A stretch of 63,159 nt of DNA, counting the filler, from Lenisia limosa (taxonomy: Eukaryota; Protista; Breviatea), in assembly GCA_001655205.1 (NCBI GenBank). It is 13 parts of 13 records of this genome, joined end to end, with 100 filler letters (N's around TTAATTAATTAA, not from the genome) between each part and the next. Parts side by side here need not be neighbours in the genome. Positions count along the whole stretch, not along the records: positions 1 to 3,123 come from LPNZ01006611.1; positions 3,224 to 24,062 come from LPNZ01005502.1; positions 24,163 to 31,208 come from LPNZ01011419.1; positions 31,309 to 34,055 come from LPNZ01010327.1; positions 34,156 to 38,173 come from LPNZ01002071.1; positions 38,274 to 40,003 come from LPNZ01010603.1; positions 40,104 to 50,157 come from LPNZ01004187.1; positions 50,258 to 53,330 come from LPNZ01001301.1; 5 more parts are not named here. The stretch is one strand, 5' to 3'. Positions 209 to 61,921 of the stretch are shown in pieces. A model generated the notes under the pieces. That model was given only the letters and a program-made list of their open reading frames with translations, was not told the origin of the DNA and ran no database searches. Position 1 is the stretch's first letter; the number at the start of each line of letters is the position of its first letter. Position numbers and translations under genes: made by a program.

Positions 209-2170
209 TTCTTTGAGTCTGTAAAAGCCAAACTGTTTCGTTTGAAATACAGAGACGCGACATTTTTCTCAGGAACTTACAACGGATTCAGGAAGACGGT
301 GCGCTTTGGAACGGCTACGAGTATTCACTGGAAAGAGTTATCGACGATATCATCATGCTTTGGTTGGGGGGGAAAGGTAATCTGTTATTTTTTTTTGGGA
401 GTGCCCCCCCCCCCTCTGTTTTTTTATTATTATTCTGATTTTTTTCACTCTCCTAGTTTCCTAATCGGGAACGATTTTCTGCCGCATCTCCCGGGCCTGG
501 ACATTTTCAGCGGGGCCCTGGAGGAGGTCTTTAAGCTCTACAAGAAGCTTCTTCCTGAACTGGGAGGGTGTGTGGGGGGTGGAAGAGATGCAAGAGATGT
601 CTTGAGATAGTGGGGGGCGGCTAAAACCCCAGATACATATTTCTAAAAAAAAAAATACAGCGACCTGGATAAGTCATGACCGACTTTCCTTGGGAAATCA
701 CTTCGCAAATCGGTCAAGCCGATGGTTTCTGTAAATCCAAGATTCATTAAATGTTAACCCCCCCCCCCCCNNNNNNNNNNNNNNNNNNNNNNNNNNNNNN
801 NNNNNNNNNNNNNNNNNNNNNNNNNNNNNNNNNNGCCCTTTATCGCTGCTGTAGCGCATTTGGAGATGAAGTACTTTGAGGAGATTGACAACGTCAACCA
901 GGTGCGCGGAATTACTGTGATAAGTATGGCTTCACTTCGGTCCGAACAAGTCCAGTTAAATATTGATAATTTTCGAGGATCGTGATATTCTGTCAACCGT
1001 AATGAAGCCCTAATTGAAATTAGTCTTTTTTTTTGGGGGGGGGGGGTTAATTGCAGTGCAGAAACCTGTTAAAGTATTCAAAAGCTCAAATGGAAGTGTT
1101 TTTTCACAGAAGTGAGTAATAGTTTACCAAAACTCCATTTCAGATCGTTAATTCAGATTTTGCGAAATAATTATCCCAATTTAACGGAGCTTTTTTAAGT
1201 GATGTATCAATATGGGATCTGGGCCGAGGGCGGGTGATTGGAGTGCTTTACCCCTCATGTGTTCCTAAATACTAAACCAACCGAGAGGAGTTAATTATAG
1301 TTTTTTATTTAATGCACATCTGAAATGATATACTCTGTTTTCCCATCTTACCCCCCACTTGTTGTTGTTAACACTCGTATGTTGTCAGCCAACAGAGTTG
1401 ATTTTGGGCTTTTTTTGTTTCATAAATTTTCCAATTTCTAACCCCTCGGTAGTGGACAGTTAAAGGCGGAATTCCAATGGCCGCACCCCTGAGGATTGAA
1501 GTGGGGGAGATGGGGGAATGTGAGTGAATATATGATATGTAAGCATATCATATAATACATGGATATGATATATTGTATACATGGATAAATATATAATATA
1601 GCTATATACACTGTATATGTAATTTTATATCTATATATATCTCTCTGTATGTTGTGTGGGGTAAATCTTAATTATTTTTTGAAGGCTTCACCTTTATTTC
1701 AGATTTCTCTACTGTGAATTTCTCTCACCTTGTTAGGATGAAGGGCTTTGTTTGGATACAATTGAAGACGCTGTAGCCCAAGGAAATGAACCCGAAAAGG
1801 TGGGAGACGATCTATGGGTTCGTTCCAAAAGAAGATTGAATTTTCGATAAATGCCAGATAATTAGATATTTAACCGCTTTTTTTGGGATAGAAAGAAGTC
1901 CTAACTATCACCGGCAATAGTTAGGTTTTTGTTTGCATCTATCCCAGGGAGTGATGTGATATAGCAGGGGATGCTGTACTTCAGAAGCGACTAAACTGGG
2001 CTTCATTTGTTTTGTTGTTCTGAACCCTCGTGTGTTGCTAGCCAACAGAGTTGNNNNNNNNNNNNNNNNNNNNNNNNNNNNNNNNNNNNNNNNNNNNNNN
2101 NATGATGACTACATTGATAGGGACGAAGAGGCTTTCGGCGAGGCTGCAATGAGATTGGCTTTGGAAGTGT
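209..2170 (+). CDS. XRN1: 5'-3' exoribonuclease XRN1, internal multi-exon fragment
   Basis: Spliced exons give ...GYEYSLERVIDDIIMLC / FLIGNDFLPHLPGLDIFSGALEEVFKLYKKLLPELGG, the XRN catalytic motif (ERxIDD...F.GNDFLPHLP). LPELGG favours XRN1 over XRN2. Later exons such as FIAAVAHLEMKYFEEID are less certain. Confidence 0.88.
658..731. mobile_element. Diverged copy of the Tc1/mariner-type MITE
   Basis: ta|cagcgacctggataagtcatgaccg ... cggtcaagccgatggtttctg|ta, in an XRN1 intron. Confidence 0.6.
1360..1452 (+). repeat. Intron 3'-end repeat family, copy ending at an AG
   Basis: gttgtcagccaacagagttgattttgggctttttttgtttcataaattttccaatttctaacccctcggtag. Related copies at 1947-2053, 3063-3123, 26781-26898, 28848-28985, 30877-30960, 33864-33976(-), 35829-35941(-), 55700-55850(-), 57248-57311, 58813-58941, 59795-59886, 60828-61102. 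Confidence 0.85.
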
Positions 2171-2247
2171 AGGCAAGTGTATTTTTTAATTTGTATATGG
2201 CAGATAGATATCGTATATGTCAGCAAATATATATTTGAGGTTGTAAT

Positions 2248-2349
2248 TAGGGCTTCCCTACAGTCCGAAAAAGACCGTTAAAAAATATCGATATATATCG
2301 AGGATTTATCTAGAAATTCAGTCTTTTTTGGGACCGTAGGGAAGCCATG
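2248..2349. mobile_element. ~100-bp hAT-like MITE
   Basis: TIRs tagggcttccctacagtccgaaaaagac / gtcttttttgggaccgtagggaagccatg; flanks gttgtaat / gttttaat (7 of 8 match). Confidence 0.8.
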
Positions 2350-2795: not shown

Positions 2796-3123
2796 TATTA
2801 ATTAACAAAGAATACACATTCTGTAAGAAAGTTATTATAAAAAGTGGTCCTTATCAACAAATAAGGAATACAAACTCTCTTTTGAAGTATTTCAAGTTTT
2901 CATTGTCAACTAATAGTTCACATTCTGTATATATACAGAAAGTGTCCATTATCACATCATTTAGTGGAACCGGAACGTCGGAGCTCGAAAAACTGGCTCG
3001 GAGAACCACCAGAATGCGAGTGGGAGGGGGTGTTGCAACATTTCTGACATTTCCTTCGTTTCTTTGGGATGCCAAGGTGCTGTAGAAGCGACTGACCTGG
3101 GCTTTGTTTGTTTTGTTGTTAGT

Positions 3124-6086: not shown

Positions 6087-9000
6087 ATGTTTGAAACAAT
6101 GAAGCAATTCAGACAGCTTTTAGGTATAAACACTGGTACAGTTGACTGTCCTCCGTTTACTAGCCGGTTCAGCCCAGCTAGCCAGCTTTACGCATTACAG
6201 GGTTACGGGGTTGTTGTTTCATGGTTGTTTGTTAGTGGTCGGTTGTTGTTTGTTGTTGGCGCACGCGCTCGCTACCCCTCCTCACGTTGCCGCGCATCCC
6301 TCTGAGCTGAACAGAGGCTACCTTGGCGCGAGCGAACGACAAAGGTAGTAAGACCTGGACGGCTCAGAGCTGTGCATCATTTGACCAGAGTAGGATGATT
6401 GGGAATGGGCATGATCATGATCATGATTGCATACATGACCTTATCATCATATTTGTTTCTCTGCAAGTACAAGGGCCCATTTTTTAAAAAAATTCACCAG
6501 ATGAATGTTCTGACACCTTCTTGTCACGTACCTGAAATATCATGGATACCCCTTTCCCATGAACAAAGGTTTGCCCGCAACTTTGAATCCTGGGGAATTG
6601 CAACAGACGCTGTCCATGACATTTTAGGGCGATCATTAACTTAGTTCGGCAAGGCAATTCAGTGTTCTTTACGGGGCCTGGGGGAACTGGTGAGCTGATG
6701 GAGTGTAAGGTTAAACGTTGAGATAATTCTGTGTTACACTGACACCTAAGGTAAAACCGTCCTTCTTCGAGAGATTATCAGAGCTGCCAATCCAATCTGC
6801 ACTAATGTAACTGCTATGACAGGTATGAGTGGATTTTATGATACCAAGGTACAAAGTTTCTAATGTCATACAACTTATTATTTCGTGGATTGGACCCAAT
6901 TTATTCTCACAGGTATCGCCGCGAAGGCAATTGGTGGGACAACACTGCATTCCTTCCTTGGCCAATCTGCTGTTAGCGGTGATGAAAATATCAACAATGG
7001 TATATCTGCAATATAGTATTATATAATACATTTAATACATACATCAGCAAGGTTATTTCGATGTAGGTGGATTGTTCAGTGGCCGAAGCCATTTTTGCAG
7101 CAAAGTTCAACAAAAAACTTGAGGAGTATGCACAGCATTGGAAACCCATGTTTCACTTTTCTGACCAATATTTCTCACAATTTCAGTATGAAGTCATGTG
7201 AAGTCTTAATTATTGATGAAGTATCAATGCTAAGCTACAAAATGTTGAGCATTCTGGATGCCTTACTTAGAAAAGCTCGAGTGGGTTTGGTTTTTCCTTT
7301 TAATTACTCTTTTTGATGATGATTGCAGCTTCCAATATGCTCTACTGTCCAAGAAAAGAAGGGTTTATGTAATTTTAGTTTTTGAAGAGAAGTGTTCCAT
7401 TTGGCGGAGTTCAGCTCATTCTTGCAGGAGATTTCTTTCAAGTTGGTTTTCTGTGAAATCTTTTTAACGAACAACATTATTATCCTTTTTTATCTTCACA
7501 AGATTTTTGGGGAATACTAACACACCCCTTTCAGCTCCCCCCAGTTACAAAGGATGATGAAAAACTGCAATATGCGTTCGAACACCCCTTGTGGCAGTCC
7601 TATATAAAACATAAAACCACGTTAACACGAGTGTTTCGACAATCTGAAGTGAGTTTGGACTTTGAACCTGTTCTGCTGAAGTCGAATGTCTTTTGAGCTA
7701 AATACTTATAAATGTTACGGCTCGTGGGGTCAAATGTTCTTTCCTACTTATTGCTTTAGCCTGATTTATGCCATCATCTCAACCTTGTCAGAGAGGGATA
7801 TGTCCCTAAAGAGACAAAGAAATTTTTCCAAAGTAAGTGTAATTTACAACTATATAACTCAATCTTATCATGATACTCAGTAATTCACATTGCCAGGTTT
7901 AAAACTTGGCAAAGACAAAGAGGCCTCAGCTTTACGTATTTTCCCTACGAACAAAGAATGCGATGATTACAATGCCGGAAAATTAAATAAATTAGAAGGA
8001 AAGGTGGGTGATTGATGATGGGTCATTTCCTTCTTACATATATCCTCCTCTATATGATGAATGGTTAGCTTTCGTTCTGAAAAGTGATATCTAAGAATTA
8101 GTTAACAATTTCAGGTGTATTCATACTACGCGAAAGACAAAGGTGATTTGAAGTGGCATGAAGTTAACAAGTAGAGGGAGACATTTCTGATCTCATGAAA
8201 GTGGTTTGTATGTCATGACGTTTTAGGCTCATGTTAGTTCAAAGCTGTGTTCGATTAAAAACTGGATCCCAAGTGATGCTTCTGGCAAATCATGATCTTG
8301 AGAAAGGACTGGTCAACGGGTCATGTGGACGCGTCAAAGATTTCACATCGAAAGGCTTCCCCATCGTCTTATTTGGTATGGATAGGTACTACAATATTAC
8401 TGAGGGATGGATTCACTAATTGACCTTTCAGATACCCATGAATTAATTGTCAAGAAAAAAGTGTTTCAAGAAAAAGATTCGGAAGGAGGAGTTATTTGTG
8501 AAAGATTGCAACTACCGCTTAAGCTTGCATGTAAGCTGATGGGATCATTTTCACCACTTATTCTTTTAGGGGGAATTACGGTCCATAAATCCCAAGGCAT
8601 GTCCCTTGATAAGGCTCACATTGATCTCAACAAATCATTTGCCCCAGGCCAAGTGTAAATGGGATTCAATCAATGACTAGTTACCAGATGAATACTTGTT
8701 CCTCATTCCATTTAAGCAGGGTGCCAACCCAAAAACTTGTTAGGATAAACCACAAAGCCAAAAATCGAGCGTAACCCGCGTGATATTTATTTACTGTTAT
8801 AAAAGCAGTTGTTTTTTGAAACAAGAGAGCAAATGTTGTGTTTTCATACTTACCAAAACTTTAGTAAAAAGTAATGACGTAACCAAAACTTTTTTTCGGA
8901 TATCTGTGACACTTTTCTGGATTGACACCCTGGTTTACGTTATCCTCACTTTGTCTTTGTAGATATGTAGCACTCAGTCGTGTACGCTCGAAGGCTGGCT

Positions 9001-10098: not shown

Positions 10099-10099
10099 T

Positions 10100-24384: not shown

Positions 24385-27300
24385 ATGACCGAGTCGACAA
24401 GCCTAGCTGCTGAGAGGTTTGGAACCGACTCCTATGAATATATTTCACTTTATTTTACCCTCACAGCCCCATGAAACCAGGCAAGGTCAAATACACACCT
24501 CTGGAGCAACAGTTTTTGGAGTTCAAGCGCCGCGTTCCAGATGCTGTTTTCGCTATTGAGGTAGGAGAGTGTTACACTACGGAGCATTGACTTGGAATTC
24601 TTTTGAGGAAGTTGGAATTCCCATATTTCACATGGTAATCCCATGGAAACCTGATGAAATTTATGGGATTCTCAATATAATTATAAGTAGGGCTTTACGT
24701 CGGTTNNNNNNNNNNNNNNNNNNNNNNNNNNNNNNNNNNNNNNNNNNNNNNNNNNNNNNNNNNNNNNNNNNNNNNNNNNNNNNNNNNNNNNNNNNNNNNN
24801 NNNNNNNNNNNNNNNNNNNNNNNNNNNNNNNNNNNNNNNNNNNNNNNNNNNNNNNNNNNNNTTGAGTTCTTTGGTATAGGTGTGATGGATGGTATGCTGG
24901 GGAGGCACGCAGAAAGCTGTGTTAAGGCAAATGATTGGGTGAATTAGTATTATTATACTCTAATCCAATATCTCTAATAAGCTTGATGGTGTCGACGGCA
25001 TCGGCCATGTACAACCTTGTTTTTTTTTTTTTTTTTTTTCNNNNNNNNNNNNNNNNNNNNNNNNNNNNNNNNNNNNNNNNNNNNNNNNNNNNNNNNNNNN
25101 NNNNNNNNNNNNNNNNNNNNNNNNNNNNNNNNNNNNNNNNNNNNNNNNNNNNCATTAAGGGGATAAGTAATTCTACAATTCGCTTTTACCGGTCCAAGGT
25201 GGGCTATCGCTACAAGTTCATGGGTGATGATGCCGAAATTGCCTCGAAAGTCCTCGATATTCAGCTCGGTCGTGCCGGTAACTTTTTCGCCACGTCCATT
25301 CCCACTCATCGCGTTGACGTTCATTGTCGAAGGTTGGCAAGGGGCTTGACGTTTATGAAATTGACACATGAATCCCAGTGGTACTATGAAAATGATTAGC
25401 AAACAGTTGAGCCTGCTCCCATTTGGTATCCTCCTCTATCTGTATCCATTGGTGTTATTATTATATATAAGGCACGTCACCTGACCGTGAACACTAATCT
25501 GACCGTGAACATCGGGCCTTCCTTTTTATTATTATTTTTTCACTTACAAGCGATGTCTCTCTAAAATTGTCCATTTTTATCCAATCAAAGGTCGTTTAGT
25601 AGCCAGTAGATTATCATCTGAGGAGAAAGCACAATAAATTCACTGAACTGCACTGCACTGAACTTTTCTCTTTATGTACACTCTATTATATAATATCTCA
25701 TATTGGCATTCGGTATAAAATCGCTTCCGTAAATCTGAGAAAGACCGATAAAATATCGATATTTATCGAAGATTTACTGAGCAAATCAGTTTTTGAATGG
25801 GCCTTTGGGAAGCCTCTATATCTGTTGGCAATTTACAGTTTTAGGCTGGTGTCGGCAGGCTATAAAGTCGGTATTGTCAACCAGACCGAAACGGCAGCTT
25901 TAAAGGTATTCCTGGCTTTTTTTTATAATGTTGCTATTATGGCTGCAAGAGACTCGAAATAGCCCTTCATCTTGTGATATTTCTCATTCTATACGTATTA
26001 CGTGTATCAACCCCCCACTACCCGACATACAGTGACCGCGATAAGTCTTGACACTAGTATTGAGCTTAATCTTTCTTCCTCAATACTCTCGCGCCCCTCG
26101 TAGCCCGTCACCACTCGCCTCTAAAATAAAAACCTAAACAAGCCATTTAATTCCTGACTAACTCATTAAGGCTGCAAGTGACTCGAAGTCACAGCCCTTC
26201 GTTCGTAAACTCACTGCCGTCTACACCAAATCTACTTTGGGTGGGGGGTATTTCAAGTTTTTATTTTGTTATTTCTAGGGTCTCCTAGAGTTAATTTTGT
26301 GCTTTTGTGTTCATGTATTCTCCTTCATTCAACGCCCATCCCCTCTTTTTTTTTGAAAATTTTTGAATCTGACCCCCCACCCCCAGCCCTATCTTCCCTG
26401 GAAGCACCACTCATGATGGGTGGAGGGTTCCTAGTTGCGGTACAGGAGAAATTGAATAACAACGGCGCATTGAACACTCCTGGAGAACAGGCTCGTTTTA
26501 CTATGATGGTGGGTCATTGTAATATGATACAGTACATATCGTTATGCTATATCAAATGTAATATCAATTTTTATAGCATATAAAACACACCCCGGAGAAC
26601 AGGCTGGTTTTACTATGATGGTAAGAGTCATCGTAATGTGCATATGATAGAGCTATTTAATATTGATAATATGTATACCATTGCATTTTATTATATGTAT
26701 TTTATGAATAACTGTTTACTCATTCATCATAATCATCATCACATCATCCTAATGTACCACATTCATCATCATCAAACCCCAGACTAGGCTCGTTTTTCTG
26801 GGCGTTGTTTGATTTCTCAAATATTGAGCCAACAGAGTTGACATTGGTGTTTTTTTTTTATATTTGAATCCTAATTGTTCCAATTTAACTATACCCAGGG
26901 GGTCCAGCCACACACAGGGGAGATTATATGGGACGAATTTGAAGATGATTTCTTGAGAACCTCCCTCGAAACCCGACTGAGCCAACTGCAGCCCGCTGAG
27001 ATGCTGTTGATGGTNNNNNNNNNNNNNNNNNNNNNNNNNNNNNNNNNNNNNNNNNNNNNNNNNNNNNNNNNNNNNNNNNNNNNNNNNNNNNNNNNNNNNN
27101 NNNNNNNNNNNNNNNNNNNNNNNNNNNNNNNNNNNNNNNNNNNNNNNNNNNNNNNNNNNNNNNNNNNNNNNNNNNNNNNNNNNNNNNNNNNNNNNNNNNN
27201 NNNNNNNNNNNNNNNNNNNNNNNNNNNNNNNNNNNNNNNNNNNNNNNNNNNNNNNNNNNNNNNNNNNNNNNNNNNNNNNNNNNNNNNNNNNNNNNNNNNN

Positions 27301-30300
27301 NNNNNNNNNNNNNNNNNNNNNNNNNNNNNNNNNNNNNNNNNNNNNNNNCCGTTTCAGCTCAGGCGGCCAGGATTGACCATTTAAGCAAGGGTGGGAGGGG
27401 GATGATAGTGCGTATGAGGGGTGCAAGGGAGTTACAATAAGTGTGTGTGTGTTTGGGGCGTAATATATCATAAGATTAACACCTTGTGACAAAGCAAAGA
27501 TCGATCACTTAACTAGGGGTGGGGGGCAACATGAGTCAAGTGTGTGTGTGTGTGGCAAGGGGTGTCAACATATCATATACTTTTGAAACAAAATGGTGAA
27601 TCTGTATGTTTATGTGGAGTAACTTCGTTTCACTTCGGTCCGAGAAAGATCGATAAAATGTCGATATTTATTGGAACATTCAGTCTTCTTTCTAAACGAA
27701 GTAAAGCAAGCCTATTAGCAACTTACCGATTAGATGATTTCGACGCACATGGTGTGAATGAGCGTTTGCGCAAGGCTGTGGAGAGTGTGGCTGATGGTGA
27801 CGTTTTTGAACAATGTTGGATGGATGGTTTTATTTTGTTTTTGTTTTTTTCTTTTACAAATATACATATATCGAAATATATTTAGTAATTGTGATAATTT
27901 ATTATTGTTTCATTTTTGTTTTTGAAATTGCAATTATGTATTAATCAAATAGATGTCTGGTAATTTTGTACATGTTCTAATTTTTTGAGCACCGTCCTGC
28001 TCAGATTCTGAGTTAACACCCTAGTACATTCGACATTTGTTTCACTGCCCGAAAACGTACACGTAGTAGCTACTGTAATTCTCAAGCATCTCTCTGCATA
28101 TGGACTCGACCAGGTATGGGGATGGGGGGGGTCAGGAATATATCTTAATCGTCTCCTATATATAGTGACCGGGATAAGTCTTCACCTATTTTTCTTGAGA
28201 AATCACATAGCGAACAGTCAAGACTTATCTCTGTCACTGTATTTCGAAGAATATCGGGGATAGCACTTTCAATTTTACTCTGGCCTGATGATGTTGGTGG
28301 TATTTCTAAAAAGCTCTTGTGTCGCCAGCCATCCGGGTTGATTTCGTGCTTTCCAATGTTTCCTTTTTTTTACCGCAGGTTGCCACACTATCCCGCACTG
28401 GACTGCATCGTTTCAACGCCGGCTCCACAATGCACCTTCCCGGCCCAACCATGAGAGGTGCTGTTTTGAGCTTATAGATGTTTTTGTTTTTTGTTTTTGC
28501 GTTCCTTGTAACTATTTCTTTCGGTTTTCCTTCAATCTCATCAGACTTCAAGTGGCTTTAGACACTATCTTGCAACTCTTTCGGGAATTGACTTTTGAAA
28601 ACTTGTGTTCTTGAATTGTCTTGCTATTCCAGTTTCATTATCGCAGACTTGGATATTCTGACAGTTACGGGTGCCGGTACCAACGCCCAGCAATCCAGCA
28701 AGCCCATGCCAGGGNNNNNNNNNNNNNNNNNNNNNNNNNNNNNNNNNNNNNNNNNNNNNNNNNNNNNNNNNNNNNNNNNNNNNNNNNNNNNNNNNNNNNN
28801 NNNNNNNNNNNNNNNNNNNNNNNNNNNNNNNNNNNNNNNNNNNNNNNCAAAGTTGATTTTGTGCCTATTTTGTTTCATAAATTTCCCAATCTCACCCTCC
28901 CCCTTCAGATTATTTCGTTTCGTGATTAGAGCCTTTACGCCAATATTCTTCGTCGAAATCCTTCGTGTTACTCCCCCCTCCCCAGGTCCCTTCTAGCACA
29001 CTTGGACCGTACCAAAACCTCCATGGGTGCTCGACTCCTACGCCAATGGGTGTGTCAACCTCCTGCTGATTATTCGTTGGAAGGGGGGGTAATGGTTATT
29101 ATAATTTTTTGTCAACCCACTGATGATTATGCTTGGGTCGTTCAGTTTTATTTGAGCAATAATTAAGACTCTCATTTAAAATCTCTTGTTCCAAGATTAA
29201 TCAGAGCAACTAATATCCATGATTCTGTACGGATTTCCTTTTAAAATTCCTATTCAATTCTACAGGTTTCCTCTTACAAATCCCTTACAAATATAAAGGG
29301 ACGTCATATTGCGTCAACAGTCTGTTATAGCCTTGGCAGAAGGGCCGCCTGAATGCTTCCAAAGGTAATGAGGGGGGGAGTATGCAAAATGTTATATCAT
29401 AATATACATATAGTATAATATAATAAAACTTGAAGTAATGTATTATCATACAGTGGCCAGGATAAGTATTAACTTCTCTAAAGAAATNNNNNNNNNNNNN
29501 NNNNNNNNNNNNNNNNNNNNNNNNNNNNNNNNNNNNNNNNNNNNNNNNNNNNNNNNNNNNNNNNNNNNNNNNNNNNNNNNNNNNNNNNNNNNNNNNNNNN
29601 NNNNNNNNNNNNNNNNNNNNNNNNNNNNNNNNNNNNNNNNNNNNNNNNNNNNNNNNNNNNNNNNNNNNNNNNNNNNNNNGCAGGTTGCACTGTGGCAAGG
29701 CCCAACCAGCCGAGTTCGTTGCACTGATGGAAGCGTTTACCAAGTACGTTTGGAGGGATTTCGCGTGAACGTGTAATATTCCTGAATAAGTATTAATGCC
29801 TTGGGCTTCACTTCAATTTATCTAGAAATTCAGTTTTTTTTTTTTTTTTNNNNNNNNNNNNNNNNNNNNNNNNNNNNNNNNNNNNNNNNNNNNNNNNNNN
29901 NNNNNNNNNNNNNNNNNNNNNNNNNNNNNNNNNNNNNNNNNNNNNNNNNNNNNNNNNNNNNNNNNNNNNNNNNNNNNNNNNNNNNNNNNNNNNNNNNNNN
30001 NNNNNNNNNNNNNNNNNNNNNNNNNNNNNNNNNNNNNNNNNNNNNNNNNNNNNNNTGATGACATCAAGGACGTGTCCATAGTGTGTCAGGCTGCCCTCGA
30101 CTCTATTGACTGCAGCGTAGCCGGCAACTTGCCTTGTGGGATTCTAGGGGAGCCCATTATCGGGTATAATATGAGTTTTATTGTAGTATCTCTTAGTGGC
30201 TTCCACTTCGGTTCGAAAAACACCGTTAAAATATCGATAATTTTCACATATTTATCGAGATATTTAATTGAGGAATTGCATCCAAAATTATTACATATCG

Positions 30301-31110
30301 AGATGGGGAAAAGGTTGTATATGACGTACGTCGTCGACAGAACCACGCTTATTGATACGAGATATTGGATCACACTGTAACACCAATTCACTCAATCATT
30401 TGCCTATTACTAACTTAAGGCTTGTTATTTTGCGAATGTTCCAATTATTATCACTAAAAACCAAATAACAAAAAGAGCAAAAAAAACAATCCCAAACCCC
30501 TTTTTGACGCATTTCCAGCGGTGAAGGACAAAACGCCGATGTTTGCTGTTTCAGGACTATTCCAACGGGTTGATGAGGTTAAGGAGGTGGGAAAGCCATG
30601 GCTTCATTATATTGATGATCTCGGTTAGTATGTGGGTCAACACGAGGGCTTAGGCCTGATACTTGATAAGGTTAATGAGATGAGAACGACTGATCATTAT
30701 GACAGCGGTTTTGGGTTATGATTATGGGACAATCATTGTTCTTGTTATTTTTATTATGTAATACCCCTCCACATACAATATTCTACATAGCAGCTACCCG
30801 CTCCGCACTTACATACAAATCAATATGTACTTGTATCATTACCTGTTTTAATAATGCACCCCCCTCAAATGTACGCCGGAGTGATAGGATCCGGTGCTGT
30901 AGAAGCAAGTGCTGTAGAAGCTTTTTTTAGCGACTGGCCTGGGCGTTTTTTTTTTTTTTTNNNNNNNNNNNNNNNNNNNNNNNNNNNNNNNNNNNNNNNN
31001 NNNNNNNNNNNNNNNNNNNNNNNNNNNNNNNNNNNNNNNNNNNNNNNNNNNNNNNNNNNNNNNNNNNNNNNNNTAGAAGATCTTGAAACTGAGTTCAACC
31101 AGCATCTTTT
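24385..31110 (+). CDS. MSH3: DNA mismatch repair protein MSH3, partial with many gaps
   Basis: KYTPLEQQFLEFKRRVPDAVFAIE/VGYRYKFMGDDAEIASKVL...SIPTHRVDVHCRR/LVSAGYKVGIVNQTETAALK/...RKLTAVYTKSTL; GVQPHTGEIIWDEFED; GSLLAHLDRTKTSMGARLLRQWV. These are MSH3-diagnostic. Confidence 0.94.
28163..28239. mobile_element. Tc1/mariner-type MITE copy in an MSH3 intron
   Basis: ta|tagtgaccgggataagtctt ... aagacttatctctgtcactg|ta. Confidence 0.75.
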
Positions 31111-33863: not shown

Positions 33864-35129
33864 CTGGGGGGAGGGGTAAAGAAAAATTTATTTAACAAAA
33901 AAAAAGAGTCCAAAATCCACATGAGAGTTGATAAGAACAAAACAAAGCCCAGACCAGTCGCTTCTGCATCACTCCAATGTACTCAATGTGGGGGAGAAAA
34001 AACGAGGGAAATATCGATGAAGAATATAAATATTGGCTTAAAAAACACTTTTATANNNNNNNNNNNNNNNNNNNNNNNNNNNNNNNNNNNNNNNNNNNNT
34101 TAATTAATTAANNNNNNNNNNNNNNNNNNNNNNNNNNNNNNNNNNNNNNNNNNNNCAGGGGGAGGGGGGGGGGGAGGGAGTAAGGATAAGAAGGGAGTGA
34201 GGGTATCTGATGCAAATGGCATGTAATTTGCACATTTACCTCCCATGGGGATCCTCATATTGATTAAATTCCACTATTCCGGCCGCATGGACTGCCCGGT
34301 TCATGTTTAGGAACCAATTTAGGTTGGTAATAATGAAAATTTGGCGAAATGTGACCAGGTTAATGGGTCCAAACGTTAAATTTCATGATAAAACATTGAA
34401 CACCTGGGAGCTAAATTGTGGGAGCTTATTTGGGCGAAATGTTACGACTATTTCAAATTGTAAATTACAAATTGTGGCTCAATTGCAAAAATACACAAAA
34501 CTAGAAACTGCATTTTGGACAAAACATGAATCGGGAAGTCGATGCGGCCGTAACATTGAAAAATAACAAAAGTGCAAATGACCACACATTTCCATATTTG
34601 CACACATTGGGAGGATCCTCCTTTTAATCAACATTCCGGCCGCATGGACTGCCCGATTGCTAAATCCACAAATACACAAATAAAAACGATGATGGTTAAT
34701 AATAACATTTAATCACAATGGGCAGTAAAACTGGAGGATCTCAATGCTGTGTAAATATGCAAATGTTACCCAATTGCAAAAGTACAATAACTTAGGCAAA
34801 CGATACACAGACGGTCCTTTTGATAGCCTATTAGAGTCTTTACAATTAGATCCCCTTCGAAATTCAAAAAAACGTCCTCAACTATTTGCACAACCCCAGT
34901 ATATGCCCCTCACTATCATATCATCATATAAAACGTTCCAACCTTTTCGCATTCATTCGGCTCCACTGAAGACTCCTCTCCTTCAAAACAGACCTGTCAG
35001 GTTAGAGAAAGATGAAATCCCAGCCACCAGCCTTGTCCTTTAACTTATATGTTTCTGGATTTGCCCACCCCCACCAATTTATGTATCCTCATTGATTGCG
35101 CCCCTACCGCCGACACACTATCTCATATC

Positions 35130-35409: not shown

Positions 35410-36530
35410 ACCATATCCACATCGATTGAGGCGTCATAACACGCCCGCACTCTGGCATCGGTATTATTGCTTGGCTGACACGTGATATACTGACAATGAC
35501 CGCATATGGAAGATCTGAAGGGTGTATATAAGGAGGGGTAAATATACATGTATAGTAGATCTTAAGGGGGGGGGGGGGNNNNNNNNNNNNNNNNNNNNNN
35601 NNNNNNNNNNNNNNNNNNNNNNNNNNNNNNNNNNNNNNNNNNNNNNNNNNNNNNNNNNNNNNNNNNNNNNNNNNNNNNNNNNNNNNNNNNNNNNNNNNNN
35701 NNNNNNNNNNNNNNNNNNNNNNNNNNNNNNNNNNNNNNNNNNNNNNNNNNNNNNNNNNNNNNNNNNNNNTGCTGATCTTTGAACCAAGAACTGGGCTACT
35801 GAGAAGAAAGGTGACAACGAGTATCATGCTGGAGGGGTAGGGGGGAGTGAAATTGGAAAATGTATGAAACAAAAAAAAAGCCCAAAATCAACTCTGTTGG
35901 GTGAAAACACACGAGGGACAATAAAACAAACAAAGCCCAGGTAGATGATATGATAGTATGTATTATACAATACACGATAATTCAATATCTCATATAAGCG
36001 TGATGGTGTAGACGGCTTCGGCCATATACAACTTTGTTTTTTTATTTCTCATTGCTATATCGAACTGAATGTGGTGGGATTTTTGGTATGGGTGCGTATG
36101 GTCCATCACATGAGTGGATATGGTATCTAAATAGAAGATTTTGATATTGGAAAACTGCCTTATGTATTGAAATACTATATGTAGCAAAATGAGAATTGGT
36201 ATTTTGCGTGTCATATGTGTTTTTATCCTACCATTTCTGTCACATCATTGAACTCTACGTTCTCTCCAACATATCCCCCCCATTAAGTTAACATTTTGAC
36301 AATTTAGCAATTCAGTTCCTTTTTGGCATCCTCTGGAAGCCCTAGTTCCAAACAGCAACATTCCTCCCCAAGATTCCCCCTTAGTTACCACCATACCCCA
36401 ATAATTCACCATCACCAACATACCCCATTCCTCCAAAAAACAACCCCCCCAATAATTCACCATCACCAACATACAGAGTGGTTTGACCTCGCATTGTGTC
36501 TTGTTTCGCGTGAACTTCAGGAGAAGGTAT
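35410..36530 (-). CDS. Possible minus-strand hypothetical gene fragment
   Basis: cag|atcttccatatg...gatatg|gtgcgg and ctcctgaag|ttcacg...ctct|gtatgt exon-like pieces; frames unresolved. Confidence 0.3.
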
Positions 36531-40003: not shown

Positions 40004-40129
40004 NNNNNNNNNNNNNNNNNNNNNNNNNNNNNNNNNNNNNNNNNNNNTTAATTAATTAANNNNNNNNNNNNNNNNNNNNNNNNNNNNNNNNNNNNNNNNN
40101 NNNATATGCATGATATATATTTGACGGCA

Positions 40130-53431: not shown

Positions 53432-53566
53432 CCCGCTTGGTATTTGTTTAATGGAGATGAAGTTGATAATAACGTCTCATTTAAATTTGTTGACAATAAT
53501 GGCGCGAAAATTGATATGGGTGAGGAAGAAAGTTATTTGATCGTTCAATTTAGAAGATTAGATTGA
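53432..53566 (+). CDS. C-terminus of a putative Polinton/PLV minor capsid (penton) protein
   Basis: Frame not in the ORF track: PAWYLFNGDEVDNNVSFKFVDNNGAKIDMGEEESYLIVQFRRLD*. Resembles the recalled penton C-terminal pattern (Y...I.I.I.D..G..IDF.GE...I.L). Pattern recall only. Confidence 0.6.
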   Translation, partial: PAWYLFNGDEVDNNVSFKFVDNNGAKIDMGEEESYLIVQFRRLD

Positions 53567-53625
53567 TAGGATTAAATCCAATTATAAAAACTACAAAAAA
53601 ATTATAAAATTATTTTTTCTATAAA

Positions 53626-53811
53626 ATGGTACAAAGAAGTTTAGTGAAGTTTGTAGATATTGTTGAAGAACCTGTCAAAGATCCTGTTAAAGAACCTGTT
53701 AAAGAGATTATAAAAGAATCTGTTAACAAGAAACCAAAATCTAAATATAGACCAAAAGACCAACGTATGAATAAATTGGAAAAATATATTTGGAAAAATT
53801 TATTAGGGTAA
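53626..53811 (+). CDS. Small 61-aa Lys/Glu-rich ORF with PVK(E/D) repeats, copy 1
   Basis: Intact ORF preceded by ctataaaATG; conserved in the second copy at 54127-54312. Confidence 0.65.
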   Translation: MVQRSLVKFVDIVEEPVKDPVKEPVKEIIKESVNKKPKSKYRPKDQRMNKLEKYIWKNLLG

Positions 53812-54126
53812 AAAACGATAAAATTATAAAATTTAAAAAATTATTTTTCTAACACTAAAGTACTATGACAAATTACTCGACTAAAATTTCTGACAATTCA
53901 AAAGACATCTTTGATGCTGATATTCTTTCCCCTCTCTTTGGAGATGTGGTTGGTGGTAAATTAACTTCCCAACCAAATACTANNNNNNNNNNCGACAATA
54001 ATGGTGCGAAAATTGATATGGGTGGGGAAGAAAGTTATTTGATCGTTCAATTTAGAAGATTAGATTGATAGGATTAAACCGATTATAAAAACTACAAAAA
54101 ATTATAAAATTATTTTTTCTATAAAA

Positions 54127-54312
54127 ATGGTACAAAGAAGTTTAGTGAAATTTGTAGATATTGTTGAAGAACCTGTCAAAGGTCCTGTCAAAGATCCTGT
54201 TAAAGAGATTATAAAAGAATCTGTTAACAAGAAACCAAAATCTAAATATAGACCGAAAGATCAACGTATGAATAAATTGGAAAAATATATTTGGAAAAAT
54301 TTATTAGGGTAA
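54127..54312 (+). CDS. Small 61-aa Lys/Glu-rich ORF, copy 2
   Basis: Near-identical to 53626-53811 (PVKGPVKD vs PVKDPVKE). Confidence 0.65.
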   Translation: MVQRSLVKFVDIVEEPVKGPVKDPVKEIIKESVNKKPKSKYRPKDQRMNKLEKYIWKNLLG

Positions 54313-54365
54313 AAAACGATAAAATTATAAAATTTAAAAAATTATTTTTCTAACACTAAAGTACT

Positions 54366-54756
54366 ATGACAAATTACTCGACTAAAATTTCTGACAGTTC
54401 AAAAAACATCTTTGATGCTGATGTTCTTTCCCCTCTCTTTGGAGATGTGGTTGGTGGTAAATTAACTTCCCAACCAAATACTAAACATTATGTTAAAGCA
54501 GTTGGAGACAATAATAACTCTAACCTTATCAATTTTACTACGGGCAAACAAAAATATAGTTTTAACATTCCTGCTAACCGACTTATTAAACCTTCTCACA
54601 TTCGTGTTATGTATCATGTGGAAAATGAAGATGAAAATACTTATACTCAAGAGACTGATGCCACTAAAAAGACTGAGTTTGGAAGTATTCAAATTCGTAA
54701 CTGTAACTCAACAGTTTTTGATTCAGTCAAAATTGGTTATGTAAAGAGTAATGGTA
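54366..54756 (+). CDS. N-terminus of a putative Polinton/PLV major capsid protein (copy 1 fragment at 53865-53982)
   Basis: Intronless ORF open to scaffold end. KYSFNIPANRLIKPSHIRVMYHV resembles the F.IP....L.P....L strand typical of double jelly-roll MCP N-termini and it follows a penton-like gene. Not confirmed by search. Confidence 0.55.
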
Positions 54757-55039
54757 NNNNNNNNNNNNNNNNNNNNNNNNNNNNNNNNNNNNNNNNNNNN
54801 TTAATTAATTAANNNNNNNNNNNNNNNNNNNNNNNNNNNNNNNNNNNNNNNNNNNNCCCCCCCCCCCACACACACACACACACGCACGCACCCTCATCAT
54901 AAACAACCCCCAGCCAACAATTAGCCAATTCATGCAAATTGGGTATCCCTATGTATTTATTTGTTTCTCTAGTTGTTCAAAATAAAAACTCTGCCTTCCC
55001 CATATTACTACCATTTCACCCTTATCCCCCTCCTACCGG

Positions 55040-56244
55040 TAACGTTCCGCCTTGCTGCAAGGCGTGGACGACCACTGCATGTAGACGGTGAACGGCAAAG
55101 ATGAACACAAAGGCGGCAATGGCAGCTACAGAGGGTCAATNNNNNNNNNNNNNNNNNNNNNNNNNNNNNNNNNNNNNNNNNNNNNNNNNNNNNNNNNNNN
55201 NNNNNNNNNNNNNNNNNNNNNNNNNNNNNNNNNNNNNNNNNNNNNNNNNNNNNNNNNNNNNNNNNNNNNNNNNNNNNNNNNNNNNNNNNNNNNNNNNNNN
55301 NNNNNNNGCCGAAGCTGTCCACACCATCACACTTTTGAATTATTGCATAATATTAATTCTCCCAATATTTTGCCTACAACTCTGTACATACAGCTTTCTG
55401 CGTGCCTCCCCAGCATACCAATGGGCATGTATGCCTGAAGTTCCCATTTGGAGTACATGTCAAGATCGAGCATACATTCGGGGCCTGTGGGGGGGGGGGG
55501 TAAAATANNNNNNNNNNNNNNNNNNNNNNNNNNNNNNNNNNNNNNNNNNNNNNNNNNNNNNNNNNNNNNNNNNNNNNNNNNNNNNNNNNNNNNNNNNNNN
55601 NNNNNNNNNNNNNNNNNNNNNNNNNNNNNNNNNNNNNNNNNNNNNNNNNNNNNNNAACACATTTAAATAAAAACAACAAAACAAGCAAAAGCCCGTCAGA
55701 ATGGAAAATGTATGAAACAATAAACCCCCAGGAAAAACTGTTGGCTTCCAACGGGGTAAAATTGGAGAATTTATGAACCAAAAATGATAAAATTGGAGGA
55801 AACAATTAAACAAAAAAGCTCAAAATCAACTCTATTGGCTAGAAACACCCCATAACCAAAAAAAAGAACAAGTTGAAACCAATAATCCCTTCTCTGACTA
55901 CCCACTTCCCCAAAAAAAACAGTCTTTTTTCGAAAAGAACAATGAGTCCCTCCCCCCTCCCCTCCTCACTGAAAAGCTCAAGGTTGAAGTTGAAGAGGGC
56001 GAAGGTACGGAAGGTGTCACTAGATACATGAGGAATCAGTAACAAACATAATAAAAAATAAAAATGAAGAAACTACCTCCTTTCCTATCCTTTTTAAAAC
56101 CTGATTCGACCGTCCTTGTTGATTCCCCCCTGATCGCCCCCCAGCTTCCGCTCTAAACTGCACCCCCCTCACCGAACAATTGACGGCCACTGGACCCTCA
56201 AAGAAGCCATAAGAGCCATAATCTGCATAAAGTTGAGAAGGACC
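55040..56244 (-). CDS. Multi-pass membrane protein fragment (protist Q...WP....N....PEC TM module)
   Basis: Exons VLLNFMQIMALMASLRVQWPSIVR / DTFRTFALFNFNLELF / PECMLDLDMYSKWELQ follow the motif order of a widespread protist TRP-like TM region. Confidence 0.6.
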
Positions 56245-56544: not shown

Positions 56545-59040
56545 AGTGTTGCTGGCACTGATGACCTTGGCACTGTGGGGGGGGNNNNNNNNNNNNNNNN
56601 NNNNNNNNNNNNNNNNNNNNNNNNNNNNNNNNNNNNNNNNNNNNNNNNNNNNNNNNNNNNNNNNNNNNNNNNNNNNNNNNNNNNNNNNNNNNNNAAGGCT
56701 TACTTCGGTTCCAAAAAAACTGAATTTTCAGAAAAATCCTCGAAACTATCGATATTATATGATAAAATTGGTGTTTGTAGAGCAGAGTGAAACCCTTATA
56801 ATACTTCTCTCACACTCCAGCTGCCCCCCACACAAACAGCCGAACTAGTTGTAGCCCCCGTGACCTTCAATACGCCTCTGGGAGTTGGCCACGGGCTCTG
56901 CTCCAACTACCTCATCAAGGCCAGGAAGGGAAGTTGGTGGTGATTCTAAGCAAAATGAGAATTTTATATCATGATTTTTTATGTGGCCATCCAGTATTTT
57001 ACGATTTGTTGTATGATACTATAATATGTCATATTATTCCATATCAGATATAATATAAAATTTATGTAATATATGCATACCATATTAAGAAGTTGTTTTA
57101 TGAAAGGTCTGTTCCAACTACCGCATCAAAGCCAGGCAGGGAATATGGAGAACTATAATTGTCATTATAATATGACTATATCGTATGTAGCGAAATGAGC
57201 AAAGATTTTATATATGAAATAAAATATATGTTAAAGTGTTAAGTATTGACCCAGAGTTGATTTTGGGGTTTTTTTATATTCCCATTTCATTAATTTACCG
57301 GTTCTTCTCAGCCACTACATTGTTGATTTGTAACAAGAGAAATTCTTTCCATGAGAAATATAGGGGAAACAAATAAATACAGAGGGATACCATAAACAAA
57401 TCACCACACTTCCGCGCACTCGATCAGATGTTTTTATATGTGTCCTTAGACCCCTACTAATACATGTATATGATATGATTTTATTTCTGTTCAAAAAAAA
57501 AGATACCCTTCTTACCCCTTTAGCCAAAATGAAGGTCTTCTTGAAAGAGTCGCAATTCCACCTCCCACCTGACAGGTTTGCGGATCTGTTGTATTTGGAA
57601 CCCTGTACAGTTGGTTCCACCCCACCCCCGCCCTCCATATGTCAAAACAATTCTAACCAAAGTTAACAATAGTCTGAATTGGAGTTTCAGTTGCTGCAAT
57701 ACTTAACTTATAAAAACAGGATGCCAACCCTTAAATTGGCTCGGATAAACCACAAATACAACTGGAACTGTGTTAACACGTGCTTCATATTTAATGTTGA
57801 AACAATTATTAACGCAAGAGAGCAAATGTTGTGAAATATCATACTGACCAAATCTTGAAATTTAAAAAGCAGTTAAAAGATGACGGCACGAAACTTTTTG
57901 TTCCAATTTCCACCTCCCCCCCATTATATAACCCCCCAGCACGGCACCTATTATTATGGTGGCGGCCGGATGTGGCATCGCGCCGCTCAGAGGATTCGTG
58001 AAGGAAAGGAGGAAGATCCTGGAGGGTGGGTGGTTGTCATTGTCGTCGGCATTTGTTGTTATTAGTATTATTATTGTTATTGTTATAATAGTATTAGTAT
58101 TGTTTTTTGTTTTTATTATTAGTAATTAATTGTTTTATTTATTGACATCATCATCAATCATCCCATCCAACACTTCCTCAGCTGGAGGCACATTGGGTCC
58201 TGCACTGCTCTTCTTCGGATGCCGTACAGAGGGTTGTGACTTCCTATTCAGAAATGTATGTAATTTTGAACTGCTTCTGGTAAAACCCCTTTTTAATTAC
58301 ATAATAGTATTATGCAGAAACGTATGTTTGTTTGAACGGCTTCGGGCTATTACTCCCTTGTTTTATTTCTCATTTCTGCAAATATATTCAGAAATGTTGC
58401 ACAGAGTTCTATTAAGCTGGAAGAATTACAGGGAATTATTATTCACATTTTTCATAGCCAAATACAACCTTGTGTTTTTCAGTGAAGCTCTAATAATATA
58501 ATAGTTCTTTATCCACTAGTATTTTGGTGTTTCTTTGTTTCTACAATACATTTCGATCAATTTCGATAGACTGCTAGAGTATACTGGTCTCTTTTTTGGA
58601 CTGTAGGGAAACCCTACCTTCAATCCAGCGAATGTAGCCAAGCTTCAAAAGCCCCTTAACGTTGCTAGGAAATTGCGAAGGCTGTTGACGATGGTGTAAT
58701 CTCAGGCCTCCGTATGGCTTTCTCAAGAGACGATGTGGGCTGAGGGGAGGGCCATTGTTTTTTGTGGAATTTTTTTCATGGAAATCTCTTTTGTTTCCCC
58801 CCACCCCCTGCTGGAGTGATGGGATGCAGTGCTACAGAAGCGACTGGCCCGGGCTTAGTTTGTTTTGTTGTTATCAATCCTTGTATATTGTCAGCCGAGT
58901 TGATTTGGTTGTTTCATTGATTTCTAATTTAACTCCTATAGCCGAACAAAAAAGAGCACGTGACTGCGCGTTTGGCTGAGGCTGTTGAAGACCTCGAACA
59001 GTTCCTCATTGCCCAGCCCGGCCACTTCTATATCTGTGGT
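56545..59040 (+). CDS. Diflavin reductase (NADPH-cytochrome P450 reductase-like) FAD/NADPH-binding half
   Basis: AELVVAPVTFNTPLGVGHGLCSNYL / MKVFLKESQFHLPPD / PIIMVAAGCGIAPLRGFVKER / PALLFFGCRTEGCDFLFR / GVISGLRMAFSRD / PNKKEHVTARL...GHFYICG. CPR, NDOR1, MTRR or a fused reductase cannot be separated. Confidence 0.88.
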
Positions 59041-59185
59041 GTGTGGGGTACTGTATACGTATGATACTATGATCTGTATAATATANNNNNNNNNNNNNNN
59101 NNNNNNNNNNNNNNNNNNNNNNNNNNNNNTTAATTAATTAANNNNNNNNNNNNNNNNNNNNNNNNNNNNNNNNNNNNNNNNNNNN

Positions 59186-61921
59186 AGGTCACCTGCGGTA
59201 ACACAGCCGAAGCCGGTCTCATGGAAGCCACCTTGGCTGATATGTACGCCTTTACCAACGACACCGTCGAAAAATGCGACTCTTACCCCGAGCAAACTGC
59301 TCGAATTCGCAAGTACGCTGTCACCAACGCCGCTGTGGACTATCTTGAGAAGGTAGGGGGGGAGAGGGCTATTGGAATTTTGAGAGGGGGGGGGACAATT
59401 TAATGATATAAATAATGTAATTCTCCTGTCTTGGCTTTTGGGTAACTTATTGACAAACTATTGCCAATCTCCACAGATCGATAAATTGAATAACACACCC
59501 ACCCACAGGGTAAGGCGTACGAGAGAGCCCTGCAGCTTCTCGAGCCATGTGTTAAGGATATGGAGGAGCAGTACAACTTCAACCTGGTTAGTTGGTGTCA
59601 GGGCTTCACTTCGGTATGAAAAAGACTGGTCGATAGACTTTCAGACAATTCAGTCTTTTTTCGGACCGAAGTAAAGCCCTAGGGATAAATTAAACAAAAA
59701 ATTTCCTTTCTATTTTAATAGGAACTATCTTTCCCCAAATTTCACTTATTTAAAAAAATTTTAATACTCTTTTCTTATTTTGTTTCTTTAATAGTAGGCT
59801 TTGTTTGTTTTGTTGTTCCACCCTTTTGTGTTGTCAGCCAGCAGAGTTGATTTTCATAAATTTTCCAATTATACCCCCCCCCCCAGCTCAATTCCACCCT
59901 CCAACGCCAAGCCGGGCTCTATAAGGCCATAGCATCAGAGGAGCGTTTCTATGCCGAATACTTCCGCGTGGCATTCTACGGGGCTTTCCCCAAAAGGTAG
60001 GTTACACTTGCCTCATGTGGTAGCCTTCCCTGAAGGTAGCTTCCAATTTACGTATTTCATATGGGAGCCTACGTCATGTTTTCCTTTTGAGCATAGCCCC
60101 CTCCTCCTCTCACTATCTCCACAATACCCGTGTAACCTTTTACACTACTTTCAGCGGCTACTACACAGTACTTATTTTTAGCGCTAACTACATCGCTCTT
60201 TCAACTGCAAATGAAAAGGAACTCAATTTCCTGGGTTGAAAATAATTTCCGTCCTTACACCATTATTAACTCACAATTCATCTCTCCTCACCACCCAGTA
60301 TCCAAAACAAGGCGTTCATCTACAAGGGCAAGCCAATGGAACGTCTCACAGAATTTGTGGAAACTCTTACTGAGAAATATCCCGCTGCTTCAATCCTCAA
60401 AACATCTACTCCAGTAAGGAGGGTTTTTTTTTTTTTTTTTTTTTNNNNNNNNNNNNNNNNNNNNNNNNNNNNNNNNNNNNNNNNNNNNNNNNNNNNATTA
60501 TCCACACATATTTGGTGGGTTACAATAATCAGTACCTGGTTTGTTCGGTCCCATCCATCACCATGTTTAACATAGCAGTAGGAATAGTATTTTAATAGTC
60601 TTAAGTACTCAGTTTCCTAATATGTTTAGCCTGAAGACGACATTCTTACCTCAGACAAGCAGCATCTGCAGATCTTCACTGTTCAGCCTTCCTCAAAAGT
60701 GCAGGGGGGGGGGGGTCNNNNNNNNNNNNNNNNNNNNNNNNNNNNNNNNNNNNNNNNNNNNNNNNNNNNNNNCATATTAATTTTTTACAAAGCACATATG
60801 ATTGCATATCATATTAAATCGGAGGGGATGTTTGTTTGTTTTGTTGTTTTCAACCCATCTGTATTACCAGCCAAACGAAGTGATTGTGGGCTTTTTGTTG
60901 TTTCATAAATTTTCCAATTTTCTCCCCCTCCCCCCATTGTTGTTTTGGTCATCCTCGTGTTTGCTATTACTTATTTTTTTGTTTTTTGTTTGTTTGGAGT
61001 TGTTTTTTGTTTGTTTGGAGTTTCAAATTATTTGGTTCGTGATTTTTGCCTTTACGCCAATATTCTTCATCGAAATTCCTTCGTTTTACTCCCCCTCCTT
61101 AGAAAGCCTACAACTTCAACAAGGTTCAAGCNNNNNNNNNNNNNNNNNNNNNNNNNNNNNNNNNNNNNNNNNNNNNNNNNNNNNNNNNNNNNNNNNNNNN
61201 NNNNNNNNNNNNNNNNNNNNNNNNNNNNNGGAGGAGAAGAAGGAAAACGAATTTGCTCATCTTTGGGTCGAGAACAACTACTACTTCTTAGGTGAGTATC
61301 GACATTATGCTGATTCTGCAATGACAGTCAGCCTCCCCGCCACTATCCCCATCATTTATTGCTGATATTGTGCATTTTTAACATTTCAAGGAGAGGCTTT
61401 CCCCGGACTTGAAGCCCGTGGCGAAATTCTGGATTTTAAGCAGGTTTTTTCTTGAGTCTTACCCCAGGTTGAACTGAGCCCTCTGGATAATGCCTTATCG
61501 GCGCTGAAAACTAAAAATGAAGAACTTAATGATATTATTGCTGCCCATGACACCCCAGGTTTGTTTATTTATATTGTCGTATTGCTCTAGCTGTTTGCAT
61601 AATATCTCACCGCAGGAGCTGAACAAAAATGTTCATCTCCCTTTACGCCCCACTTATTCATAACCTTTCCCCAATTTACTACATATCATCTACATGTTTT
61701 AGTACACATTCTAGAGTTTTTTCTTCTTACTCTTTTCACGTATACTCTTTTAAACATCCAACATCTCTTATAAACGTGATTGTGGGACACATCTTCGGCC
61801 AGATACTTCTCATCTCTTTATATAACACTACATCAATATCTTAACTTCATATAGGGGCTGCTTACACATCACCGTTCACTATGGCCCTCAATGGAATTGT
61901 CGATGCTGCTGTCAACGGAGG
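59186..61921 (+). CDS. DOCK-family Rac GEF, DHR-2 region (DOCK-A/B-like)
   Basis: CGNTAEAGL...YLEK / AYERALQL / QAGLYKAIASEERFYAEYFRVAFYG / FIYKGKPMERLTEF / LQIFTVQP / HLWVENNYY / AFPGL / VELSPLDNA / LNGIVDAAVNGG. Confidence 0.92.

Follow-up and report, generated by a model that had tools for sequence, protein, structure and literature searches.

How does one repeat family come to occupy the 3' intron ends of genes that are unrelated to each other, and did it make those introns? The question is raised by a stretch of 63,159 nucleotides (nt) from the breviate Lenisia limosa (GCA_001655205.1; hereafter "the window"), in which an original prediction, made from the sequence alone, had described a dispersed, sense-oriented repeat that ends on the AG of intron acceptors. 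The answer that we put at slightly better than an even chance is that a high-copy, non-coding, intron-like element was inserted into pre-existing introns at their 3' splice sites, probably via RNA. We hold with rather less confidence, somewhat under an even chance, the wider claim that this is a new class of mobile element homing to 3' splice sites, of which two related families take turns, stack upon each other and have overwritten the branch site and acceptor end in a large share of the genome's long introns, some of these introns dating back to the common ancestor with animals. The window consists of about 13 contigs with N-linkers between them and further internal gaps, has a guanine plus cytosine content of 37% and comes from an intron-rich eukaryote; all counts of copies, strands and positions refer to it. 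RNA evidence was taken from the public RNA run X1. A further run, X2, whose kind is unrecorded and in which introns are covered, is called the DNA run below; it is possibly the source of the assembly and in that case not independent of it.

To define the family, an nhmmer profile was built from 11 seed copies, which match it by construction, and a cut-off expectation (E) value of < 1e-4 was applied. The profile gave 14 matches at 13 loci in seven genes, recovering the non-seed matches 28309, 55751, 55850, and 57240, while the best match in a reversed-window control (first profile) had an E value of 0.6; the claim of a dispersed repeat family is thus borne out. Copies are 73-90% identical (mean 82%; 28 pairs of eight copies). 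Within the intron at 58735-58941 the depth of the DNA run rises from 28-31 in the flanks to as much as 476,543, with a sharp edge at 58810; the ratio of about 1.6e4 is not a copy number, as overlapping short contigs inflate it. A total of 2,364 contigs of this run were placed on the intron, at least 216 of them having long and unlike flanks on the 5' side. Because so many contigs were placed here, and because 13 loci lie within 58.7 kb, the main family likely numbers thousands of copies in the genome. Two element motifs had no match in the JGI metagenomes, one motif had none in the GTDB genomes, and matches in Rfam were at chance level only.

All 14 matches run in the sense direction of their host genes, four of which are on the plus strand and three on the minus strand, on seven separate contigs; host strands were called from open-frame exons bounded by GT or GC and AG. 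The one-sided chance of such an outcome is 2^-7 = 0.008 when counted by gene and 2^-13 when counted by locus. Two control families are found in both orientations: a family of ca. 130 nt (F2) in four sense and five antisense copies (n=9), and a miniature inverted-repeat transposable element (MITE) in eight sense and three antisense copies (n=11 with a host, two more being hostless), although the MITE is near-palindromic and its strand assignment accordingly uncertain. The earlier claim on the orientation of the element therefore stands. Small families can be one-sided too (F4, near-palindromic, 4/4; F6, 3/3). An exclusively sense family calls for a directed step, since selection acting on random insertions would leave antisense copies.

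The position of the copies is as regular as their strand. Nine of the 10 loci with a visible 3' end lie flush with an acceptor AG (1451-52, 26897-98, 28377-78, 28984-85, 33864-65, 35829-30, 58940-41, 59885-86, and 61101-02), two of them by way of a second family. For the eight loci at which both intron ends could be modelled, the chance product for terminal position is about 7e-14. Among 31 long introns modelled by hand, nine are terminal carriers, one has a mid-intron copy and 21 are without a copy. At one acceptor the RNA evidence is direct: a contig joins 58734 to 58942, skipping 207 nt with GT..AG ends, and thereby uses 58940-41. In MSH3, letters 58-137 of a 287-nt RNA contig align to 28376-28455 and letters 206-287 to 28985-29066, and the interval is filled exactly by exons 28379-28457 and 28647-28713. 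Because these exon lengths fill the contig, 28377-78 and 28984-85 are acceptors and 28908-09 is excluded. RNA that does not use these AGs had been named in advance as the observation that would speak against the prediction; at the three places that could be checked, RNA uses all three element-derived AGs (one by its joint, two by length). Among the MSH3 RNA pieces listed, none spans the junction at 26897-98. The remaining terminal AGs rest on open reading frames, apart from 61101-02, a candidate acceptor with gaps on both of its sides.

Some details of the original prediction have to be revised. The MSH3 acceptor 26897-98 and others are indeed terminal, whereas it is the second family, and not the main one, that provides the ends at 28985 and 61102; a further terminal copy, 28308-28378, had been missed; and not every copy ends at an acceptor, as that at 57240-57311 falls ca. 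212 nt short of 57522-23, the probable acceptor. The identities of the hosts MSH3 and XRN1 were confirmed by Pfam or PDB matches. Two further hosts are genes that we tentatively take to be DOCK and a reductase. Among the exons tested of these (three and two, respectively) no Pfam family was matched, and a PDB search with DOCK gave a single weak match (E 0.37) and a second PDB search none. Separate PDB searches with two exons yielded nothing useful. The copies and associated features are as follows.

1359..1452, plus strand: main-family copy truncated at its 5' end; AG 1451-52 of the XRN1 intron 902-1452, with a C-run directly upstream and an open frame
1947..2053, plus strand: main-family copy, 5' and middle modules; an acceptor-like CCCAG before it, a gap and then an XRN1 exon after it
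3064..3123, plus strand: main-family copy truncated where the contig stops; between donor 3020 and the copy, 44 nt resemble a complete short intron lacking its AG
26287..26386, plus strand: acceptor 26385-86 may carry a strongly decayed copy (E 0.5-3), excluded from the counts
26509..26898, plus strand: MSH3 carrier intron, phase 0, before the codon that aligns with human residue 392
26783..26898, plus strand: diverged main-family copy ending on AG 26897-98, CCCCAG upstream
28308..28378, plus strand: main-family copy, decayed; its terminal AG, 28377-78, is used in RNA as judged by length
28849..28903, plus strand: main-family copy, 3' modules (its 5' part in a gap), non-terminal; AG 28908-09 is skipped in RNA
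28904..28985, plus strand: second-family copy supplying acceptor 28984-85, used in RNA as judged by length
30871..30960, plus strand: main-family copy with intact GTAC, ca. 250 nt into the intron and immediately after a C-run; a gap precedes the MSH3 exon
33864..33982, minus strand: main-family copy with GTAC, ending on AG 33864-65
33990..34050, minus strand: second-family copy without AG, stacked upstream of the 33864 copy
35829..35942, minus strand: main-family copy, AG 35829-30; an in-frame hydrophobic N-terminus; an F2 repeat adjoins its 5' side
55670..55868, minus strand: head-to-tail stack of decayed copies, then a gap of 148 N, a C-run and AG 55485-86
57240..57311, plus strand: decayed sense copy in mid-intron, short of the probable acceptor 57522-23
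58755..58809, plus strand: decayed older 3' end without AG, a weak second-family match (E 0.013), adjoining the 58810 copy
58810..58941, plus strand: main-family copy of near full length, acceptor 58940-41 by RNA joint; the 5' edge maps here
59794..59886, plus strand: main-family copy truncated at its 5' end, AG 59885-86, pyrimidine tract upstream
60820..60936, plus strand: main-family copy, non-terminal; its C-run is not followed by an AG
60937..61102, plus strand: second-family copy, AG 61101-02; its first 30 nt resemble the middle module of the main family

Three sites had been predicted to run into gaps upstream of exons. This holds for the copies at 1947 and 30871 and for the stack at 55670-55868; to these we add the copy at 3064, which meets a contig end. 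Introns of the short contigs are long and repeat-filled, and many gaps and contig ends are located within repeats. The long contigs 3224-24062 and 40104-50157 have mostly introns of 40-70 nt and no element copies. The minus-strand gene of contig 54857-56244 has a probable GC donor at 55434. Of the other repeats, F2 occupies nine places across 2408-61806, in both orientations and at very high DNA-run depth. F6 (ca. 130 nt) is intron-internal and sense at 8807-8914 (plus), 31572-31699 (minus), and 57802-57911 (plus), the copy at 57802 continuing into a C-rich acceptor region at 57939.

The family works as an introner in being mobile, sense-only and splice-signal-bearing, but it fails to span whole introns (0 of 13 loci) and, in one clear case, to mark a new intron position. 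An ordinary introner could nevertheless have made these introns, their 5' halves having later been expanded or replaced by repeats, an explanation that we regard as very improbable. It would be in keeping with a full unit that has both splice sites, and with long introns that are full of other repeats. The first 40 nt of the carrier introns, however, share nothing: their mean score of 12.0, versus 14.5 in other introns, makes them no more alike than the latter, just as had been noted for the differing 5' parts. GTAC, moreover, persists inside introns, far from the donor. What precedes the copies is equally telling. With an acceptor matrix trained on 70 hand-picked non-carrier acceptors, the sequence upstream of the 13 copies had a mean acceptor-like score of 3.98 versus 1.24 (p ~0.0001-0.0003); when copies preceded by older ones were dropped, p was 0.007 (two dropped) or 0.03 (three dropped). 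This sequence resembles an old acceptor region minus its AG, and such old tracts upstream of copies are not what an ordinary introner would leave.

The age of one carrier can be judged directly. Downstream of AG 26897-98 the exon opens, in phase 0, at the codon aligned with residue 392 of human MSH3. Codon 392 of the human gene begins with c.1174, and an intron stops just before this base, as the intronic variant c.1174-176G>A indicates (PMC7432688). Intron 26509-26898 therefore has the human position and phase, and was not created by the element. The non-carrier intron 29076-29298 likewise matches human MSH3 c.1763, and the genome therefore keeps ancient intron positions. The two other MSH3 carriers match neither of the human boundaries compared, c.1568 (given in PMC10742236) and c.1653. 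These two carriers, which are what an ordinary introner would lead one to expect, may be younger or common to other lineages. The comparison with orthologous positions that had been proposed thus gives a mixed outcome, a shared position for one of three carriers and no match for the other two. Of the origins offered in the original prediction, targeting or capture of 3' splice sites is supported by the terminal sense copies, the AG-less upstream tracts and the carrier at a human position, whereas an introner with a decayed or expanded 5' half fails as the general case, given GTAC deep inside introns, the unlike 5' ends and the ancient carrier.

The third origin on offer, a homogenised signal for the splicing of long introns, would now read as a functional sequence kept alike by selection or conversion. 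The element is present in long introns only, and its branch-like motif and C-run resemble those of host acceptors, as such a signal should. Yet 21 of the 31 long introns do without it, no Rfam family corresponds to it, and similarity over 100-140 nt with a sharp 5' edge, truncations and decayed stacks indicates copying and not convergence. We find this explanation hardly credible.

The anatomy of the unit is that of an intron in miniature. Its full length of ca. 140 nt reads, in order, as a GTAC start, a G-rich and then U-rich body, a YTNAY-like motif, a C-run and AG, and from its sequence it looks like a complete GT-AG intron of the host type; several host donors likewise begin with GTAC when inspected by eye. 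Of the 59 non-carrier acceptors with a YTNAY-like motif, 36 have its A at 9-10 nt from the end; in the copies the distance is 7-19 nt (by eye). The last 8-15 nt before the exon vary more than the body (by eye), as expected if those nucleotides belong to the host. At the other end, GTAC is kept by two window copies (30871, and 33982 on the minus strand), and the remaining copies start at several inner positions. The majority lines of loose ends upstream of the edge (108 + 31 contigs) are pyrimidine-rich and end in TGTAC or CGTACA, and not in AG.

Several known kinds of element were compared with this anatomy. None of the seven copies tested had a significantly stable fold (z from -1.44 to +1.58), and stable RNA structure was rejected. 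Neither a poly(A) or simple-repeat tail nor RNA polymerase III boxes were seen by eye on either strand, and the box motifs, fold and Rfam match of a small nucleolar RNA were absent. A solo long terminal repeat (TG...CA, on the opposite strand) was rejected because its end is not conserved among copies. An antisense short interspersed element (SINE), of which the upstream pyrimidines would be the tail, is less likely, as it predicts a constant GTAC and only two copies keep it.

The same features bear on whether the element moves as DNA. A non-autonomous DNA-level mobile element, driven by a transposase, a tyrosine recombinase or a rolling-circle protein, or spread by ectopic conversion, would prefer pyrimidine-AG sites and integrate in a fixed orientation through a short shared core, selection trimming the remainder; we think it rather unlikely. 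The sharp 5' edge together with head-to-tail arrays would fit circular or rolling-circle intermediates, some copies have an imperfect inverted match of 7-9 nt between the G-rich start and the C-rich end, and Cryptons and helitrons, which leave no target duplication, are counted among known introners (PMC12130899). On the other hand, beyond that imperfect match there are no conserved terminal inverted repeats, no subterminal 3' hairpin was seen, the copies lack a stable fold, and ordinary DNA elements of the same introns lie in both orientations. Selection alone, furthermore, would favour antisense copies, whereas every match here is sense.

Copies have also accumulated on one another. Where the main family ends ca. 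80 nt before AG 28985 and ca. 165 nt before AG 61102, the second family fills the end. It has three clear copies (28904-28985; 33990-34050, minus strand; and 61009-61102) and a weak one at 58768-58807 (E 0.013). Its 5' part and the main family's middle module are alike (1 of 2,000 shuffles, 0.0005), while its 3' end shows only a weak similarity (shuffle fractions 0.026 and 0.17). The two families are stacked in both orders. Joints in read contigs confirm the order of the modules and add a third site with the second family after the first, and back-going joints of 37-75 nt correspond to head-to-tail copies elsewhere in the genome.

One possible explanation for these observations, and the one that we favour, is insertion primed by the RNA of the element itself. 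We infer its steps from the copies, their strand and position, the three AGs used in RNA, the GTAC edge, the stacks and the one ancient carrier. A full-length copy could be spliced out by itself, releasing a linear RNA whose last bases are pyrimidines followed by AG. If the pyrimidine tract of a second intron's acceptor were nicked or broken, this end would anneal to the template strand there and prime reverse transcription. Copying would often stop early, so that the 3' join would be exact and share the host AG while the 5' join would vary. The old branch site and pyrimidine tract would remain upstream without an AG, and the new branch site would take over. Splicing would be unchanged and the insertion nearly neutral, whereas sense copies landing elsewhere would add a competing acceptor and mostly be purged. 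Repeated insertions, including those of the second, related family, would displace earlier copies in the upstream direction, so that introns grow at the 3' side. Priming by a pyrimidine-AG end predicts sense orientation, a shared AG, an AG-less old tract, 5' truncation and stacking. A precedent for the priming step is found in tailless retropseudogenes, which are described as primed by 2-18 nt of target complementarity and as having no tail (PMC5322556).

An alternative route through RNA, proposed for the introners of Micromonas, is spliceosomal reverse splicing into RNA or R-loop DNA at AG|G, a site type well represented by existing acceptors, with the copies at acceptors as survivors and the inner AG|GT decaying. 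It accounts for sense-only copies and exact 3' ends (PMC4540971, PMC3879977, PMC10996645), and Micromonas introners are described as leaving remnants in conserved introns and merged copies (PMC3879977). Three truncated copies (1947, 26783, and 59797) do have an AG at or next to the 5' join. Reverse splicing predicts, however, an AG before GTAC in intact copies, where the majority lines have pyrimidines, and many whole-intron copies in exons, of which there are none at the 13 loci. We therefore consider it quite improbable.

Priming by the element's RNA end has its own difficulties, and the following points weigh against it. The sample is 13 loci in a single window; no empty site or allele was seen at any of them, so that the insertion point is itself inferred, and the portion of the window that was searched yielded neither a reverse transcriptase nor a source element. 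An acceptor-like upstream tract is missing at four of 13 junctions (1948, 28309, 57240, and 60821), the copy at 57240 is the sole non-terminal one among the 10 loci with a visible end, and just one of the three MSH3 carriers compared is at a human position. No target-site duplication was detected (own 4.0 versus cross 4.1 nt, p 0.67, n=8 copies), with the proviso that copies are ca. 18% diverged and short duplications could have been lost. The scattered 5' starts can equally be explained by decay after insertion, which gives the same picture where only the 3' end is needed. A T, finally, often precedes GTAC in the majority line; the unit may in fact begin with TGTAC, in which case its likeness to a donor would be coincidental.

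Repeats are known to supply acceptors in other genomes: Alu and other SINE-derived acceptors gain a pyrimidine tract and AG from the repeat, but such repeats lie antisense, have no preferred insertion site and give rise to additional exons. The copies of the present family are sense and terminal and leave the exon boundary unchanged. A close likeness is to the introners of Micromonas, which are non-coding, intron-sized, repeated and sense-only, need neither terminal repeats nor target duplications, and also occur as remnants inside conserved introns and as nested or merged copies; they differ in being mostly whole introns at new positions, with remnants that lack both splice sites (PMC3879977, PMC4540971). 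The present family has no whole-intron copy, and its copies serve as the functional acceptor in introns older than themselves. In genome-wide surveys some introner families carry a 3' splice site, as this one does, but the surveyed introners obtain their second site from the target sequence and thereby make an intron (10.1101/2022.06.06.494994; PMC12130899). Both surveys required similarity at both intron ends and removed secondary insertions into introns already present; an acceptor-capturing family would therefore have been discarded by design.

Two further systems invite comparison. Sister stwintrons of the Xylariales share similar GT-AG units nested in a splice signal, the lack of target duplication and an RNA-templated model; in those, the whole twin moves to new exonic sites, it is the donor that is interrupted, and the inverted repeats are near-terminal (PMC12403724). 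In the present case the acceptor region of resident introns is struck, most copies no longer have the inner donor, and the RNA contigs show final joints only. Tailless retropseudogenes share priming by complementarity between the RNA 3' end and the target and the lack of poly(A), but they are known from mammalian LINE-1, show target duplications and are not associated with splice sites, so that the analogy is mechanistic only (PMC5322556). A literature search that covered few subscription papers and no supplements returned no family described as taking over acceptors; figures S16-S17 of PMC3879977, on merged introners, lie outside that coverage and may bear on novelty.

For the movement of repeated introns, reverse splicing and RNA-templated repair are so far proposals. 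A family that numbers thousands of copies, joined exactly to existing acceptors on the 3' side and variably on the 5' side, is a large natural data set with which to separate such mechanisms. If an acceptor-homing class is real, intron ends can be swapped wholesale while exon structure stays unchanged, by a route that surveys miss by design. Such an element would follow a safe-haven strategy, its own end replacing the host signal, which our literature search did not find described. It would also provide a route for lengthening introns from the 3' end, and splice-signal sequence could be young where the intron position is ancient.

Some further features of the window were recorded. In the long introns (n=30) the 20 nt after the donor have a G fraction of 0.32-0.42 versus 0.15-0.19 inside, and the 20 nt before the AG a C fraction of 0.32-0.47 versus 0.18-0.20 inside; these ends are alike in carriers and non-carriers, and could pair and so bring the splice sites together. 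Diverged copies of the neighbouring exon edge lie in introns at 26592-26630, 25925-25975, and 57105-57150, one of them with a donor-like GT. The region 53431-54756 contains a 501-nt direct duplication and short, intronless, AT-rich frames; the frame at 54369 may resemble the start of a virus-type capsid protein, Pfam giving only a weak GEVED match. The stretch 62071-62130 on the minus strand, which may resemble small-subunit rRNA although Rfam found nothing in it, is followed by a 159-nt tandem repeat at 62578-63159.

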